From Felis catus (lineage: Eukaryota), in NCBI RefSeq assembly GCF_018350175.1, contig NC_058368.1:49973815-50037814 (forward strand): DNA of 64,000 bases. Reading direction: 5' to 3'. The position numbers and the translations under genes are program-made. Below, in pieces: positions 3,722 through 39,428 of this stretch (position 1 is its first letter; every line of letters starts with the position of its first letter). Under the pieces are notes generated by a model that was not told the origin of the DNA, made no database searches, and worked only from the letters and a program-made list of their open reading frames with translations.

Positions 3722-3850
3722 TTTCTCAAACAATTAGGTCTACATCCTAACTGGCAGTTTGTTGATGTATATGGAATGGATCCTGAACTTCTTAGCATGG
3801 TACCAAGACCAGTGTGTGCAGTGTTACTTCTCTTCCCTATTACAGAAAAG
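3722..3850 (+). CDS. UCHL3: UCHL3 coding exon 3 ([43 protein letters not shown])
   Basis: Acceptor ttttaccag at 3720-3721 and donor gtactt at 3851; 129 nt, phase 0-0; translation matches UCH-L3 residues 19-61. Confidence 0.98.
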
Positions 3851-8101: not shown

Positions 8102-8258
8102 TATGAAGTATTCAGAACGGAGGAGGAGGAAAAAATAAAGTCTCAGGGACAAGATGTTACGTCATCAGTATATTTCATGAAGCAAACAATCAGCAATGCC
8201 TGCGGAACAATTGGACTCATCCATGCTATTGCCAACAATAAAGACAAGATGCACTTTG
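8102..8258 (+). CDS. UCHL3: UCHL3 coding exon 4 ([52 protein letters not shown]), contains catalytic Cys95
   Basis: ttttaatag acceptor and gtaaat donor; 157 nt; QTISNACGT motif with TGC at 8201-8203. Confidence 0.98.
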
Positions 8259-8655
8259 GTAAATAATTTTTTATTACTGCTTGTCCATCACCTCCCCCCA
8301 ACCCCAGCCACCAGAAGTCATGAGTTGACTTATTGAGCAGTAGGTGGTGCTGTGGTTCTTTCTTTTAAAGTATCAAATAAAGCATTTTCCTTTCTTTTTC
8401 TTCTTTTTTTCCCCTAGTGGGAATGTATATACTGTTAGAAGAAATATTAATCTTTCCCATTCTTTTATAATGTTGATAAAAAGAGGTTTCACAAAAAACT
8501 TAAAGCCTATCATTTATCCCAGTATTCTTATATTCCCAACTTAGCAGTGAAAGGGTTTTTATCTAAAAAAAAAAGAGCATGCTTCTAGTATTTTCATATA
8601 TCAGTGTCTTTGAGATAACAAACCTTCTCAATTTTATCTTCTTTAATATTCTCAG

Positions 8656-8741
8656 AATCTGGATCAACCTTGAAAAAATTCCTAGAGGAGTCTGTGTCAA
8701 TGAGCCCCGAAGAACGAGCCAGATACCTAGAGAACTATGAC
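8656..8741 (+). CDS. UCHL3: UCHL3 coding exon 5 ((E)[28 protein letters not shown])
   Basis: attctcag acceptor and gtcggt donor; 86 nt restores phase 0; overlaps ORF 8670-8864. Confidence 0.96.
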
Positions 8742-9569
8742 GTCGGTACCTTCTTTCTGTCTCGATCTCATTTACGGGCAGTTTTGTGGGATTGTAGATA
8801 CTTTTGGGATGTTTGTCTTGAAACTTTAGTTTTGAGCAATTATGGATTTTATTGTGTCCGTTAAAAAAGACCTTCTGTACTTCATGTAACATTACCTGAA
8901 ATATCCAGAAATGTTGATGAATTGCCACTTCTTTTCTACATCTAGAGCTGAATGACAGAAAAAAAGTTTGATTTACAAATTTTTAAAATATTTTATGATT
9001 GACTGTTCCTTACCACTCCCTCCCCATAGTAAATAGATGCCTGCCAATGCCCTGTGTGTGTTTCACTGGGAATTTGGAACAAGGCTGAAGACCAGTGGAA
9101 AAAACAAAGGCTTAAGGCTAGATGTCAGATCATATGTTAGCTATTCTATCAGCTTAGTAATGTTTTTGCCTGTGTGAAGACATAATCTACTTGTACCATT
9201 TCATAGAATTGTTTTAGAGTGACATTTAAATCTTACTGGTTTTGGACTCTTATTTTTCTTTTGAAGGACTTTTTAACTTTAATTAACACTACTAGGTAGA
9301 TGTTAAGTTCTTTGGAATTAGAAGGAGTATAATGTACAGATTATTTGGCTAGAAAAATGCCTTATACAGAGTTTGTGTCCAATAGATTCATTGATTTCAT
9401 CATGTTTTAGCATTCTTACCTACTTTGACTATCTTAAATTGTTTTTTCTTTAAAAAACCTGCAGATCATAAAACATCTTTATTTTACACAAAAGTAAATT
9501 AAACAACATAAAAGTCACCAGTAATCCTACCAATAAGAAGTAGCTGCCATTATTAATATTTTTATAGGG

Positions 9570-10568: not shown

Positions 10569-10616
10569 GCTATCCGAGTCACTCATGAGACCAGTGCCCA
10601 TGAAGGTCAGACTGAG
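10569..10616 (+). CDS. UCHL3: UCHL3 coding exon 6 (AIRVTHETSAHEGQTE)
   Basis: cattacag acceptor and gtattt donor; 48 nt, phase 0-0; start of the crossover loop. Confidence 0.97.
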
Positions 10617-18200: not shown

Positions 18201-21200
18201 TTTTTTTGGTACGCTGAGGGTTTTGGAAATAGCAATATTAAACTATTACTTATTTTGAAGGAAAATTCTTAGACTGAATTAATGAGTATACTCTTTTAGA
18301 TCTGACTAAATGTAACCCTTCTGTGTAAAAATGTCTTCAGTAATAAACATAGAATCAAGATTAGGTTTGAAGATGGTGAGGTTTTTGTTTGTTTTGTTTA
18401 AAACCATAGCTTTCCAAAATGAAGGGGGTGATGCTAGGATTTAAGATTCTTTCATTTGTAATAAATGAGAACCTGTTCTCACGTTGTTAAAAAAAAAAAA
18501 AATCTGGGAATTAGCTTGACCAGCTTAACAATGGTAAGCTTGAATTTAATGTAACATGTACAGATATGTCATTATATTGATAGAGATTTCTGACATGGAG
18601 AATTGTAAATTGAAGTGAGGAAACACAGTTGTTAAATTAGTAGAGGAAAAGTCTTTCAAGAATGTCTTGAAATCTGTGGGCATCTTGATTTATTAGATGA
18701 ACAAACTGAATACATTTGCCATCGTGCAGATTTTCCATGGAATATGTAGTGATATTTTGTGTATTTTGATATGTAGCCCATGTTTCACTTTGACTTCTTT
18801 GCCAGCTGAACATGGACACTCTGTAGGAAAGTTTGTATCTTTTGCATGAATATGGTTTTACTTTCCTATTTTAAATTTGGACCTTACCTTTAGTGCAATC
18901 CGATATATTGTACTGAGCTTTCCAAAAAAATCTACAGAAATCCATTTAGAATTAATTTATAGTTGTGATTTTAAACTTTTCAAGTTTTACGTATATGGGC
19001 ATATTCCCATGCATGTGCATATACATACTCATACATGAATGCACACACATTTACAATTTAACTTCTTTTCATAGCATTTGGCAGCCCTAGAGAAGTTCCT
19101 CATACTTTTTCTTTCCATGTGCCATTTTAAACTCAGCGATATTGCTGAGGTCTGAAAGGACATATACATTCAGGAAATAACTGTTAAATTTAATTGTGAT
19201 CAAATACATATTTTATCAACAGGTCAATAAAAGGAGTCATGATTTCCAATGATCATATAAAGAAGCTAAAATTATTTTTTAAAGTGGAATTTGAATTTTT
19301 TACAGCATTTTATTCTCATTTCTACCCTGTAGAAGGAAAGGAGATATTATAAAGGAAATGCACATTGTTTTCTACTAGAGGTGCACAAATATCGTAGGTT
19401 CTCAAGCCAGAAAACTCTCACTCTGAGATGACTGGGGATGCTTGGAGACATTAGGCGTCACTTTGGGTGCCACAGTGTCAATTGAGGAAGTTTTCTTTGT
19501 ACTCTTAGTGTCATTTATGGTTGAAAGTAATGGAAATTGAGGTGCTTATTAGCTTCCAAATATTCTCATCTTAATCCTCACTGCTTTTGAAACCATGTTT
19601 GTCATCTTCCTTTAATGATGGTTACATTTACTGAATGCATCTTACATGGTGGGCATTATACTATAGGACAGGTGTCCCCTATTCTAATCTTCTAAATTCC
19701 TTAAGATCTATGTTACCCCATTTTACAGATGGTAAGACTAAGAAGTAACTCATCCAAGGTCACATAGCTAGTAAGTACTGACCATGCTATCAAGGCAGAA
19801 AAACAAAATAACTCAAAATTGCTAAAACAAAAAAAGAAGAAAGGGAGGATTTTTCATTTTAAATTTTTGTTTTTATCCTAAGAGCAAAGTTAAACACAGC
19901 TAATAATTTAATGCAAATATGTAATGCATCACAAGCGACCATTCTTAGTTGTACTGAATACTTTTATTCTTTGTTACCCTTATATCTAAGTTAGCTCTTA
20001 GTAGATTTTTCCTTATATTAAACATAAAATCTTCCCCTTAAACTAACCACAGTCTTTTGGTTATCATATTGTGTATATTTCAGAAAACAGTAATTATTTT
20101 AAGTATCTACCAGCTAATGATCCCTTCGTGTTCAGAAAATTACATGGTTATAATGATATTTTTCTTAATAACAGGATGCCTATTAAAATGAGAAAATGTT
20201 TTGGGTGTAAGCCAAAATCACTTAGTTTATTTTCGCATTTTAGAATAATTCAGATTTAAGCACTTACAACAACCTTCCAAACACTTGATTTCTTAATAGA
20301 CAAGCATTTTTTAGGCAGACCCTTGGCCCCCTTTTTAAAAATGTGTGTATCATTTCTTTTTAGCCTTTACAGTATTTTTAATTCATTGGTTAAACAGTTT
20401 AAAGAGTAATCTTGTCATTTACATACACACAGGGACATGTACATTAATGGAAAGAAGGTTTTAAACAGACACACATCCTTTTTAAACAGGCACACAACCT
20501 CCACCTTTTAATTAAAGGTTTAGATCATTTCTTTGTAGCCTTCATGATATTTCTAATTTTTTTTTTATTGTTATTAAACAGTTTAAAGAGTAGTTGACTC
20601 ATTTTCTCACATACAAAGTGACATGCACATTAACTGTGAAGGAAAAATAATTTGGCTTTGTAGGACCTGGGTATTTTATTTTTGTTTTATTTGTTTATTC
20701 TGAACTAGCTATAAGTGTTTAAAAACAGAAACATTTGAATTGTGTTTGAGGAATACAAATAGAGATAGTAATAGATTTCCCTCTATGAATCAGCTAAATT
20801 AATTGACAGTTGACGGGTGAGTGGCTCTGTATGCAATGAAAACACTGAAATTAGAGTCAGGAGTCATGTGTTCTGCCTCTGGTTTTGACTGTTACTAGTT
20901 GAATGCTTTGGGCAAGTCAGCTAAGTCCTTGTGCTTCTAAATATTAAAAAACAAAAAACCAGCTCCCCCCCCCCCAAAAAAAAAAACCACTGTCCTAATA
21001 AACCCACTCTGTGTTAGTATTTTATTTTATTATTTTTTATTTTTTTGTCTTTTATTTTTGACTCTAACAGGATTTAAGTTAGAATCAGAATGCTTGAAAA
21101 TCTCTGAAAATGAGTATTTATGCCTAAATCTTTCATGCAACAATAATTTATTAAATTCCTAAGGGTTCTTTGTGAAGAGCAAAACATTTAAGCTGCTTTT

Positions 21201-26035: not shown

Positions 26036-26260
26036 TTTTTTTTTTTAATTTTTTTCAACGTTTTTATTTATTTTTGGGACAGAGAGAGACAGAGCATGAA
26101 CGGGGGAGGGGCAGAGAGAGAGGGAGACACAGAATTGGAAACAGGCTCCAGGCTCTGAGCCATCAGCCCAGAGCCCGACGCGGGGCTCGAACCCACGGAC
26201 CGCGAGATCGTGACCTGGCTGAAGTCGGACGCTTAACCGACTGCGCCACCCAGGCGCCCC
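26036..26260 (-). mobile_element. Felid SINE, young subfamily
   Basis: Full-length; long TSD actccctcccagattctt. Confidence 0.95.
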
Positions 26261-26503
26261 GACTCCCTCCCAGATTCTTAGAAGATTTTTGTTTTATTCC
26301 ACTGCTCAGTCATCTTTCCTTCCCTTTCCTTTTTTACTCCATTTTCTTTTCCCTCTTCATCCATTTTTCTTCTCTTCCCCATTCGCTCCTCTCTTTTTCC
26401 TATTGAAATGTAATTGGATTGAATATGACAAACTTCTGATTAGACTATGTGAGAGCAGTTTATTCCTGTATACAGCCAAGTATAGGTTTTTTTAATGTAT
26501 TTC

Positions 26504-26726
26504 TTTTTTTTTAAGTTTTTTTTTTTTAATGTTTTATTTATTTTTGAGAGACAGCGTGAACCGGAGGAGGAGAGGGACAGAGAGAGAGGAAGACACAGAA
26601 TCCAAAGCAGGCACCAGGCTCTGAGCTGTCTGCACAGAGCCCAAGGCAGGGCTCAAACTCACCAGCTGTGAGATCATGACCTGAACCCAAGTCAGACATT
26701 CAACTGACTGAGCCACCCAGGCACCC
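26504..26726 (-). mobile_element. Felid SINE
   Basis: SINE body; TSD atgtatttct. Confidence 0.92.
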
Positions 26727-27334: not shown

Positions 27335-27565
27335 TGCATTCCAGAACCAGATTTCCTGTATTTGAATCCCATCCCTGCCACTTGCTAGCACTGTGGCCTT
27401 TATATTGGTTATATCGGTTGTATTCATTAACCTCTATGTGCTCTGATTCCTCATTTGCAAAATGGGAATATAGTACCTATCTCATGGGTTACTGGGAGAT
27501 TAATGAATTCATATATGTAAAGTGCTTAAAGGAGTGCCCAGGACAAAATAAGTGGTACATATTTT
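27335..27565 (+). mobile_element. MIR
   Basis: ttgaatccc...gccacttgctagc...ttaacctct.tgtgctctg.ttcctcatttgcaaaatggg...atgtaaagtgctta. Confidence 0.85.
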
Positions 27566-28159
27566 AACTAACACTGTTGATTACTAAAAGATGGCTAGTA
27601 GGCTGTGATAGTTTCTATTTGTCAGCCTAAGTAAGAGGGTAGTTTATGCAAGCCATCAGCTTCAGAGGGGTTAAATTTCACTCCTCTTTATATTCTGAAG
27701 GGGGTTTTTCCCCCCTTAGAGCTTATTCTCGCTAAGGAATTCTTTTCACCAGTGCCTCTGTCACCATTCAGTTTTCTTCTACACATTATTTTTTGTTTTG
27801 TATGTGTAACATATTGTGTGTTCTCCGTGTGTGTGTGTGTGTGCCTGTTTTTTAAACCATTTGATGTAATAATTCCATTTTAGTGGCTTTTAAAGAATTC
27901 CATGAGTCTGTGTTATGCAAATGAGGATAGGTAAACATTTTAGATGGGTACTTACAGAAGCTATGGCATATAACCTGATACTTGGTTATATATTTCCACT
28001 TTATCTAGTTTTAACCAATATTCATATATAATTCTTTCTGGATTATGGTTGGTTAAAGTACTAGACCATATAAATACAAATATGACCATACGTTGCTTTG
28101 AAAAAATAAATGATCGCCCAGTAACGTGGTCTAAGTATAATGTTCTCTTTTTTAATTAT

Positions 28160-28990
28160 GTAGTCCTCCTCGCCATCCTCATCACAGCCTCATTCTAGCC
28201 ACTGCAGAACGAAGGCCTCATCATTGTGTCACCATGCATCCCTGCCCTGGGTCAAACGTAACCATGTAGGCCCTGCAAAGGCTACCAGTCCATCTCTCCG
28301 TCTTCGTCGCTGGCGACCCTTCTTACGCCTACCATCTATGGGTCTCCATTCTGTTGTAAGTGTAGTCAATCTTCCATCTCTTCTTCCAGTGACAAGGATA
28401 GTCCATTTTTTTTCCCTACACTTCTTCAGTCTTCAAAGTGCTTTTCTCTTGGTTCACTCAACCATTAGCTTTTTCTCCCCCAATAAGATTGCAAGCATAC
28501 CTCTATGCTTTGCAGTCTAGCTTGACTTTCACCAGTGCCTCGGTGAACATTCATCTTCCCACTCCATATCCCGCCAACATAAGGATGCCTGCCTTTTGAT
28601 GAGTACTGATTGACGTTCATGATAATGTTTAAGTTCCTGTCAGTTGTTAAAGTGAATATGTATTCTCTTACCCTTCATCTTTATGATTTCATTTAGTTGA
28701 CTTAGGTCAACAAATGCTATGTACCTTCTGAGTTCTTTGCCATCTCTTTGGTTTTTTTTTTTTTTTTTTTTTTTCATGTTTCTGAGCATGACTATAGTCT
28801 CTTGTCATGCTCTGGGGTCACTTTACTTACTCTATCCTTAACCTAATCCTTCCATGGTGTAGGGTGTTTCATCTAAGCTATTTTATTCCCTGAGGTGTCT
28901 CAGGTACTTGGTTTAATCTTGATCCAATCTTCCCTGCCTATTCAGTTTCTAAAGATCTTTTCCAAGTAGGAGGTGAAGATTTTCTCCTTG
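28160..28990 (-). mobile_element. Ancient RTE-clade LINE fragment (RT and C-terminal region plus 3' tail)
   Basis: Minus-strand translations IFTSYLEKIFRN*, KYLRHLR, ILMLAGYGVGR*MFT, RGMLAIL and KKWTILVTGRRDGRLTTLTTEWRPIDGRRKKGRQRRRRRDGLVAFAGPTWLRLTQGRDAW*HNDEAFVLQWLE* followed by a GAT/GAG-type tail; collinear with RTE ORF motifs. Confidence 0.8.
28164..28355 (+). CDS. UCHL3: Candidate alternative in-frame cassette exon of UCHL3 (64 aa: SSSPSSSQPHSSHCRTKASSLCHHASLPWVKRNHVGPAKATSPSLRLRRWRPFLRLPSMGLHSV)
   Basis: Acceptor tgttctcttttttaattatgtag and consensus donor gtaagt at 28356; 192 nt, no stop, phase 0-0 matching intron 6; GC/CpG-rich patch in an AT-rich intron. Confidence 0.72.
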
Positions 28991-29861
28991 TGAATTGATG
29001 TAGGCTTCCCACAAGTTTTATGATTTCTCCTTCTTAGGTTGATAATATTAGCAAACTATTAAAAAGTGCATTCTTTCTTTTAATCTTGCTAATTATCTTA
29101 AATGTTGAGGTTGATGGTGGAATTCTAATAATTCTCATAATTGACATCAACTGCAGGGTTAGGCAACTCCAGCTCTATCTTTCTGCTGTTTTAGACTTAT
29201 ATAGCAATGACTTTCATTTGGCAGAGCCTACCTAGAAATGCTACCTCTGAAAGATTTGGTGTATGCCATCCATTTATGAAAAACTTCATGCTTCTGGAAA
29301 TCATCATGACTTTTGAAGCTAGAGGAAGTCTCATTCCTCATACATTTAATGCTTCAATAAATTGAAAGTTGATGTCAAACATTCTTTCTTCCCCTTTATG
29401 TACTCTTTTAGAGCTATGCTCAAACTGTGAAGCAGAGTTTTGACAGTTTTCCTAAAATATGTACATCCCCCAAATATCAGTATGGTCATAAAATAGCCTT
29501 TCATTTGTGCTGAGTATCAAGCAACAAACTGGTGTCTATTTCATTTTCCTCATTGGATCACAACATGCATTTGCCATTTTTATTCATTTACCTGTTTAAT
29601 ATTTTTTGCTTCCCTACTGTGCCACACATTGGCATAGTAGGAGATATAAGGTGAATTATAGGACCAGAGTAAAACCCTAATTTTGTAAATTCTAACTTGG
29701 GCACAATTGATTCTAAATATTCCTTTGTACTTTTAAAATATTCTGAATATAAATGAACATATCATAAAGTTGGTGTTTCCAGTTTTATATGATTTTATAT
29801 AAGTTTGATCTTTGCTTTCCATATTAATTCTGTTGCTTTATCGCTTCATAAATATTTTCAT

Positions 29862-32635: not shown

Positions 32636-32711
32636 GCACCAAGTATAGATGAAAAAGTAGATCTTCATTTTATTGCATTAGTTCATGTAGATGGGCATCT
32701 CTATGAATTAG
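32636..32711 (+). CDS. UCHL3: UCHL3 coding exon 7 ([25 protein letters not shown]), contains catalytic His169
   Basis: ctcctatttcag acceptor and gtaaga donor; 76 nt; CAT at 32666-32668. Confidence 0.98.
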
Positions 32712-38719: not shown

Positions 38720-38778
38720 ATGGACGGAAACCATTTCCAATTAACCATGGGGAAACTAGTGATGAAACTTTATTAGAG
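38720..38778 (+). CDS. UCHL3: UCHL3 coding exon 8 ((D)[19 protein letters not shown]); the Asp184 codon is split across exons 7/8
   Basis: tttccacag acceptor and gtaaca donor; 59 nt. Confidence 0.98.
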
Positions 38779-39344: not shown

Positions 39345-39428
39345 GATGCCATAGAAGTTTGCAAGAAGTTTATGGAACGTGACCCTGATGAATTGAGGTT
39401 CAATGCAATTGCTCTATCTGCAGCATAG
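39345..39428 (+). CDS. UCHL3: UCHL3 last coding exon 9 (DAIEVCKKFMERDPDELRFNAIALSAA*)
   Basis: ttttgtccctatag acceptor; TAG stop at 39426-39428; matches the UCH-L3 C-terminus. Confidence 0.98.
   Translation, partial: DAIEVCKKFMERDPDELRFNAIALSAA

Follow-up and report, generated by a model that had tools for sequence, protein, structure and literature searches.

Intron 6 of the UCHL3 gene of Felis catus, within the 64-kb window analyzed here (the whole stretch of 64,000 nucleotides), very probably contains at 28164-28355 a genuine alternative exon of low usage that was exapted from a non-LTR retrotransposon (LINE) and is constrained at the nucleotide level. The exon is real and ancient, it is LINE-derived, it falls in the crossover loop of the enzyme, and its nucleotide sequence is constrained. 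Its low usage appears to be regulated, and the sequence probably carries signals beyond the peptide. The exon is already present in public annotation and in one paper (PMC7456611), and its origin, its age and the type of constraint acting on it appear undescribed. The LINE origin was also absent from an earlier note on this DNA, which had proposed the exon from the cat sequence.

The acceptor of the cassette exon reads ..ttctcttttttaattatgtag/TCC (boundary 28163/28164) and the donor GTT/gtaagt (boundary 28355/28356), with 192 nucleotides or 64 codons between them that are free of stops in the UCHL3 frame. Splice sites, open frame and 0-0 phase, all proposed in the earlier note, are thereby confirmed to the base, and translation of the interval returns the peptide quoted there. 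UCHL3 exon 6 ends in ..GGTCAGACTGAG/gta at 10616 and exon 7 begins with cag/GCACCAAGT at 32636, each in phase 0; since both exons are bounded by full codons, both introns are of phase 0. The description of a CpG-containing patch in a 22-kb AT-rich intron is also accurate, with a GC content of 0.55, 8 CpGs and a CpG observed/expected ratio of 0.64 in the exon, as against a GC content of 0.35 and a ratio of 0.22 for intron 6 (22,019 nt). The locus is single-copy (blastn against its own 2.43-Gb genome). The encoded peptide has a pI of about 12, with 10 K/R, no D/E, 15 Ser and 7 Pro. Coordinates are collected in Table 1.

Table 1 Features of the UCHL3 locus in the window, with the cassette exon and its LINE-related surroundings
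Feature	Coordinates	Strand	Remarks
UCHL3 coding exons 3-5	3722-3850, 8102-8257, 8655-8741	+	Exons 3-5, 8 and 9: encoded protein the same as human UCH-L3, despite 32 synonymous differences over 515 nt
UCHL3 exon 6 (AIRVTHETSAHEGQTE)	10569-10616	+	Last codon complete, Glu158
Polypyrimidine tract and AG acceptor (atgttctcttttttaattatgtag)	28140-28163	+	Probable antisense of an A-rich sequence immediately downstream of the LINE ORF; translation kept in bird ORFs (MF..MQ / DYI.IKKE)
Alternative cassette exon	28164-28355	+	192 nt, 64 codons, phase 0-0, 8 CpGs, basic Ser/Pro-rich peptide
Consensus donor GTAAGT	28356-28361	+	Read-through translation HSV-VS-VV identical in mammals and birds
Homologue of LINE ORF2 C-terminal tail (non-LTR retrotransposon)	28187-28513	-	2 stops in this genome
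Downstream intron	28356-28610	+	Conserved in eutherians, with frame-shifting indels; read into the coding sequence of truncated isoforms predicted for primates, cattle and whales
UCHL3 exon 7 (APSIDEK...)	32636-32711	+	First codon Ala159
UCHL3 coding exons 8 and 9	38720-38778, 39345-39428	+	

The cat sequence by itself does not go beyond chance, since 16% of shuffles at the composition of the exon remain open and intron 6 offers 3 donor sites with open phase-0 candidates of the form AG...GTRAGT; the other two sense frames of the exon contain 1 and 2 stops. The exon is judged real because of the comparative evidence. Two special kinds of exon were considered and rejected: a poison exon, because the cassette has neither an in-frame stop nor a frameshift (192 = 3 x 64), and a recursive-splicing exon, because TCCTCC and not GTRAGT directly follows the acceptor. 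An Rfam search of 27500-29200 gave no match at E <= 1, and the predicted fold of 28140-28400 revealed no special structure (z-score -0.54, with 63 of 200 shuffles equally stable), so neither a known RNA family nor RNA stability explains the conservation of the region.

With the 64-aa peptide as query, 22 matches were obtained among 85 candidate proteins. Apart from 4 ORFs on short contigs and 2 entries named 'hypothetical protein', all of them are predicted UCHL3 isoforms (NCBI/UniProt), which bears out the mention in the earlier note of a similar peptide in predicted mammalian isoforms. The cassette motif is present in 89 of the 243 proteins collected. In 48 of the 89 the cassette is joined in frame to exon 7, 20 of these forms having the full N-terminus and 17 starting at Met37, that is, without the N-terminal 36 residues; another 37 run past the donor into the intron and end without His169 and Asp184, and 4 are other forms. 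Predicted isoforms with the cassette come from primates, rodents (Cricetulus, Marmota, Microtus), bats, cetaceans, pinnipeds, deer, hedgehog and marsupials among mammals, and from birds including Gallus, Crocodylus porosus, two turtles and five squamates among sauropsids; examples are XP_027961932.1 of Eumetopias, XP_043854209.1 of Dromiciops and UniRef A0A8V0X8W4 of Gallus. All evidence outside human consists of automatic models (XP_, TrEMBL), which counts somewhat against our explanation. Such models are reported only with an open frame, so that lineages with a broken frame would be invisible.

A profile search with the cassette alignment produced 23 matches among 8000 scored candidates, all from mammals, birds or crocodile; the lizard and turtle forms surfaced only in the whole-protein search. 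Among the entries listed in the latter search, those from frog, coelacanth, shark and ray-finned fish have 226-230 aa, except for two proteins of 254 and 288 aa that both lack the cassette, which is weak evidence for absence. Pattern scans for cassette DNA of other vertebrates confirmed none of 293 candidates in metagenome contigs and none of 27 in genome contigs.

A human PacBio isoform in supplementary file 3 of PMC7456611 carries the cassette as ...CAGACTGAG/TCCTCCTCG...CATTCTGTT/GCACCAAGT, and its junctions, CAGACTGAG/TCCTCC...TCTGTT/GCACCAAGT, fall exactly on the boundaries in cat. Together with the predicted isoforms of many species, this full-length cDNA identifies 28164-28355 as a true in-frame cassette exon. 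The human RNA evidence is one isoform in one data set, with 2 full-length reads for the cassette form against 39 full-length and 31 other reads for the canonical isoform, a small number that also tells against our explanation. The RT-PCR primers given in the same source match the window exactly at 28171-28190 (+) and 28265-28286 (-); as both lie inside the exon, unspliced RNA could have given the same product. Since the human cassette isoform has an alternative first exon according to that source, its ORF would start at Met37. The canonical 230-aa form makes up the largest protein clusters (e.g. P0145 with 161 members and P0166 with 248), and the cassette is skipped in the major transcript. 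Our literature search for function or activity of the cassette isoform turned up only PMC7456611; the accessible parts of PMC5381560 and PMC6727631 contain nothing on it.

The opposite strand of the exon region reads ...EWRPIDGRRKKGRQRRRRRDGLVAFAGPTWLRLTQGRDAW, a stop, HNDEAFVLQWLE and a second stop. The stop-free antisense peptide of 67 aa (P0024) had 41 matches at E <= 1e-3 in a search of 1.84 billion representatives. The top four (74-91% identity) come from the corresponding locus of other species, and most of the remaining ones are short ORFs with the same terminal motif. In 2 of the 14 matches scanned with Pfam (P0113 and P0128) an RVT_1 domain lies just N-terminal of the matched tail; that only these two carry a reverse-transcriptase domain, the others being short fragments and one, P0100, an unrelated bacterial repeat protein, weighs against the proposed origin. 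Alignment placed every one of eight LINE-tail proteins on the minus strand inside 28187-28513, up to their own C-termini. A blastn search of the genome for further copies of the cassette region found none. A paralogue search of 21 candidates gave two matches, the locus itself and a decayed LINE tail with 47% identity (E 6.7e-7) and two TGA stops at L003:1501-1653 of contig C46; the latter is the sole further copy found in the genome, another point against the explanation. The C46 copy lacks the conservation of the UCHL3 copy and is a useful neutral comparator.

By this homology, the cassette exon corresponds, in antisense, to the final ~55 codons of a LINE ORF2 and some 25 nt past its stop. 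On the same evidence, a 5'-truncated LINE inserted in antisense orientation into intron 6 before the split of mammals and sauropsids and was exapted there. Read in antisense, its A-rich, GAT/GAG-rich 3' end would have provided the pyrimidine tract and AG of the acceptor as well as the Ser-rich start of the cassette, and its reverse-transcriptase tail would have contributed the open frame together with the Arg-rich patch and the GTAAGT donor; related LINE tails indeed end in runs of Asp/Glu. Because the exon is common to mammals, birds, crocodiles, turtles and lizards, the insertion predates the amniote ancestor. The antisense (LINE) frame across the exon is fully open in one bat-like and three bird-like orthologues (P0096-P0099), and over 28164-28355 (-) it contains two TGA stops in this genome and in human. 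The sense and antisense frames have their third codon positions in common, for which reason a comparison of the two was dropped as a coding test.

Cat and human are identical at 190 of the 192 bases of the cassette exon and share all 8 CpGs; the two changes are CGC/CGT (synonymous) and ATG/TTG (replacement). In the constitutive exons 3-9, 35 of 639 bases differ, all synonymously. A synonymous change is present in 1 of 64 codons of the cassette against 34 of 213 in the constitutive exons (Fisher p = 0.001), and a replacement in 1 of 64 against 0 of 213; synonymous sites are about 10 times more conserved in the cassette, in a comparison made by eye against a human PacBio consensus with at least one apparent error elsewhere. 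A duck-type orthologue differs from cat at 8, 3 and at least 6 of 58 codons in positions 1, 2 and 3, with transversions at 4 of the 39 classifiable third positions, and a bat orthologue at 1, 2 and at least 2; the bases of both were deduced by script from paired sense and antisense ORFs, which makes the values for position 3 lower bounds. Third codon positions are normally saturated at the distance between birds and mammals. Here they appear to be far from it, as far as the deduced bases go. No excess of third-position differences, that is, no three-base periodicity, was found for human or for the duck-type orthologue, the latter test being weak with position 3 a lower bound. As to the conservation of frame and splice sites raised in the earlier note, the frame is open in the lineages retrieved, and mammals and birds share both the acceptor AG and the donor GTAAGT.

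Near-invariance at all codon positions, CpGs included, thus holds for cat and human and in part for duck and bat, and eutherian similarity extends about 255 nt past the donor, to about 28610, with frame-shifting indels. From the codon positions, the CpGs and the flanking intron we infer selection on the nucleic-acid sequence itself and not on the peptide only. The interpretation in the earlier note is supported as regards cassette, position in the loop and catalytic triad, and several observations, among them the constraint at synonymous sites, weigh against a purely protein-level reading. The signals in the nucleic acid would most likely control the use of the cassette exon.

A possible but doubtful alternative is that the conserved sequence is a non-coding LINE-exapted element (an enhancer, say, or some other signal in DNA or RNA), with splicing as tolerated noise and an isoform devoid of function. 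The constraint over all codon positions and the conserved eutherian flank with its frame-shifting indels would suit such an element, as would the low usage of the cassette. In isoforms predicted for marsupials, muroid rodents, Dipodomys and Numida, intron 6 also gives rise to further in-frame exons specific to the lineage, so that insertion at this position of the loop seems to be easily tolerated. On the other hand, all 8 CpGs lie in the exon part and none in the downstream LINE part at 28356-28520, the splice sites are kept from mammals to birds while bird-mammal similarity fades soon after the donor, and the frame is open in every lineage retrieved (55-76 codons), with the caveat that retrieval favours open-frame models. 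Length varies mostly in the Ser triplet repeat, where in-frame changes could arise by slippage without coding selection.

The cassette peptide is conserved like the core of the protein in mammals and diverges faster in sauropsids. Relative to cat, its identity is 97% in marsupial (core 94%), 80% in Gallus (core 87%), 75% in crocodile (core 86%), 67% in turtle (core 87%) and 56-60% in lizards (core 83-84%). The motifs KATSP, RW.P/CWQP and GLHS/GLRS persist in all lineages. Regarding the Ser-rich segment and basic RLRRWR patch that inclusion was expected to add, a Ser-rich and basic peptide is indeed present, but the patch is not retained in turtle and lizards, where it reads CLRCWQ and SLQRWR, respectively.

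Spliced in, the exon would separate Glu158 from Ala159 by 64 residues (55-76 in other lineages) and leave the catalytic residues untouched. The natural 294-aa isoform P0008 is identical to the solved UCH-L3 (1UCH) at 1-158 and 159-230 and has the 64 residues in between, so that the insertion point named in the earlier note is correct; it lies within the crossover-loop region. Pfam finds one Peptidase_C12 domain in P0008 at residues 6-278 (profile 1-211). The Cys95/His169/Asp184 triad is retained as claimed, with C95, H233 (=169) and D248 (=184) invariant in the 69-sequence alignment A3; in the read-through form P0004, Peptidase_C12 covers only profile positions 14-156. With that alignment, AlphaFold2 gave a pLDDT of 85-96 for the core blocks and below 50 for residues 158-228, the latter without secondary structure (a previous run with 17 sequences and a mean pLDDT of 36.7 is superseded). 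The model predicts a disordered insert of 64 residues on a core that still folds.

According to the available text of PMC4822132, UCH crossover loops have 11-21 residues, substrates must thread through them, and lengthening or shortening the loop alters specificity, with size and not sequence being what matters; PMC12278599, as far as accessible, makes the same statement on loop length for UCHL3. With 64 residues added, the loop would be several times longer than any natural UCH loop, and by analogy with engineered loops it is plausible that the insert relaxes the filter on substrate size. That the long-loop isoform is actually made as a protein and has a wider substrate range is rather unlikely.

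The exon may exist for the sake of this second enzyme, a long-loop UCH-L3 of 294 aa acting on larger or chain substrates with Ser-rich and basic regulatory handles, which we regard as rather unlikely. It would account for the in-frame joining in 48 predicted isoforms from mammals to lizards, even where peptide identity has dropped to 56-60%, and for the persistence of the KATSP, RW.P and GLHS motifs; it also agrees with the retained catalytic residues, with the predicted folding of the core and with the reviews that place UCH specificity on loop length rather than sequence (PMC4822132, PMC12278599, in their accessible text). Peptide function would nevertheless leave unexplained why synonymous sites are as constrained as the others, RLRRWR is not kept in turtle or lizards, and the insert is predicted to be disordered. 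The low read count (2 vs. 39), the 17 of 48 cassette forms without the N-terminal 36 residues and the lack of a paper reporting activity of the isoform, among those found, speak against it as well. We think it unlikely, too, that amniotes have retained for more than 300 million years a regulated, LINE-born exon that makes UCH-L3 a natural long-loop deubiquitinase with altered substrates, the nucleotide conservation reflecting a dual code of peptide and of RNA signals that turn the exon on in particular cells.

Control of UCHL3 dosage by unproductive splicing, where use of the acceptor, with the donor or without it, diverts transcripts to weak or dead products in the manner of ultraconserved regulatory exons, appears quite improbable. 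The 37 of 89 motif-bearing proteins that end in the intron without His169 and Asp184 would be such products, and the conservation of exon and flank nucleotides resembles that of regulatory exons; however, the cassette has no stop and a length that is a multiple of three, which is not what a poison exon looks like, and 4 of the 37 read-through proteins are mere ORFs on unspliced contigs. A chance open frame between chance splice-like sites that are never used, for all its openness probability of 0.16 and the 3 candidate donor sites in the intron, is ruled out for practical purposes by the exact junctions in human cDNA (PMC7456611, available data), the deep conservation and the many predicted isoforms across species.

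The LINE-exapted exon of low usage can be compared with several known systems. The predicted UCHL3 isoforms and the human 'novel isoform' of PMC7456611 represent the same exon with the same junctions, and neither these models nor the accessible parts of that paper say anything of the crossover loop, of an origin from a LINE, of the age across amniotes or of the synonymous constraint. The ultraconserved PCBP2 exon derived from LF-SINE is likewise an ancient retroposon fragment that became a deeply conserved alternative exon (PMC9148063 and PMC2394776, in the parts available). The source there is an LF-SINE, whereas the UCHL3 exon goes back to a LINE coding tail read in antisense; moreover, 11 of 19 LF-SINE exons introduce an early stop according to the available text of PMC9148063, and the UCHL3 cassette is in frame and stop-free. 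The accessible part of PMC2394776 counts 103 exonisations of L2 and 12 of CR1 in human, 60% and 67% of them antisense, and as in UCHL3 an antisense intronic LINE supplies splice sites and exon. Most L2 and CR1 exons are young or weakly conserved, in contrast to the UCHL3 cassette, which is of at least amniote age and nearly invariant in mammals.

Engineered crossover-loop variants of UCH-L1 and UCH-L3 (cited in PMC4822132 and PMC12278599, accessible text) lengthen the same loop, in UCH-L3 of the same enzyme. The cassette differs from their short artificial inserts in being a natural insert of 64 residues. The artificial inserts of Popp 2009 and Zhou 2012 reportedly ranged from a few residues to about a dozen. 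Ultraconserved poison exons of splicing-factor genes, to judge from the accessible accounts of them, show a similar conservation of nucleotides that includes synonymous positions and flanking intron. The UCHL3 cassette is unlike them in having no premature stop and no frameshift, and its host gene encodes a deubiquitinase and not a splicing factor. Strictly defined, an ultraconserved element is a run of 200 bp or more without a difference between human, mouse and rat. The cassette is near-ultraconserved in mammals and yet contains no stop codon, so that the usual explanation by poison exons does not fit.

UCH-L3 is treated as a single enzyme of 230 residues in the literature searched, and a term search of the accessible 2025 UCHL3 review (PMC12278599) found no text on isoforms or exons. 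The crossover loop is generally accepted to filter the substrates of UCH enzymes by size, and its natural, deeply conserved lengthening would make the question of which large substrates UCH-L3 can handle testable with one recombinant protein. The exon is also a clear example of LINE exaptation in which the antisense of the coding tail became an exon in the amniote ancestor or earlier.

Predicted isoforms of other species carry different inserts at the same position of the loop, with 38 aa in marsupials, 41 aa in Mus caroli, 38 aa in Mesocricetus, 35 aa in Dipodomys and 39 aa in Numida (proteins P0148, P0140, P0143, P0142 and P0156). None of these lineage-specific inserts has a match in the 64-kb window. 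Exons seem to have been gained repeatedly at the crossover-loop position, at least in gene models. The cassette of an isoform predicted for Tursiops is preceded by an extra segment, MLSHFTDWKTKKLLTQ, which is matched in intron 6 of the cat at 19710-19757 (+) over 12 of 16 residues (E 0.007), with a stop.

In intron 5, the interval 8956-9117 (+) has 70-76% protein identity to an alternative N-terminal exon in the predicted X5 isoforms of Manis and Hippopotamus, where MIDYSLPFPP...GLK is joined to exon 6; the cat homologue contains one in-frame stop. It may represent a conserved alternative first exon or an internal promoter. Translations such as GAWVAQSVECLTWVQVMISQLVSLSPALGS recur at about 26500-26700 (-) and, in L003, at about 830-1000 and 2420-2560; we take these repeats to be tRNA-derived SINE copies of the carnivore kind, and they account for the GC-rich patch at 26100-26300.
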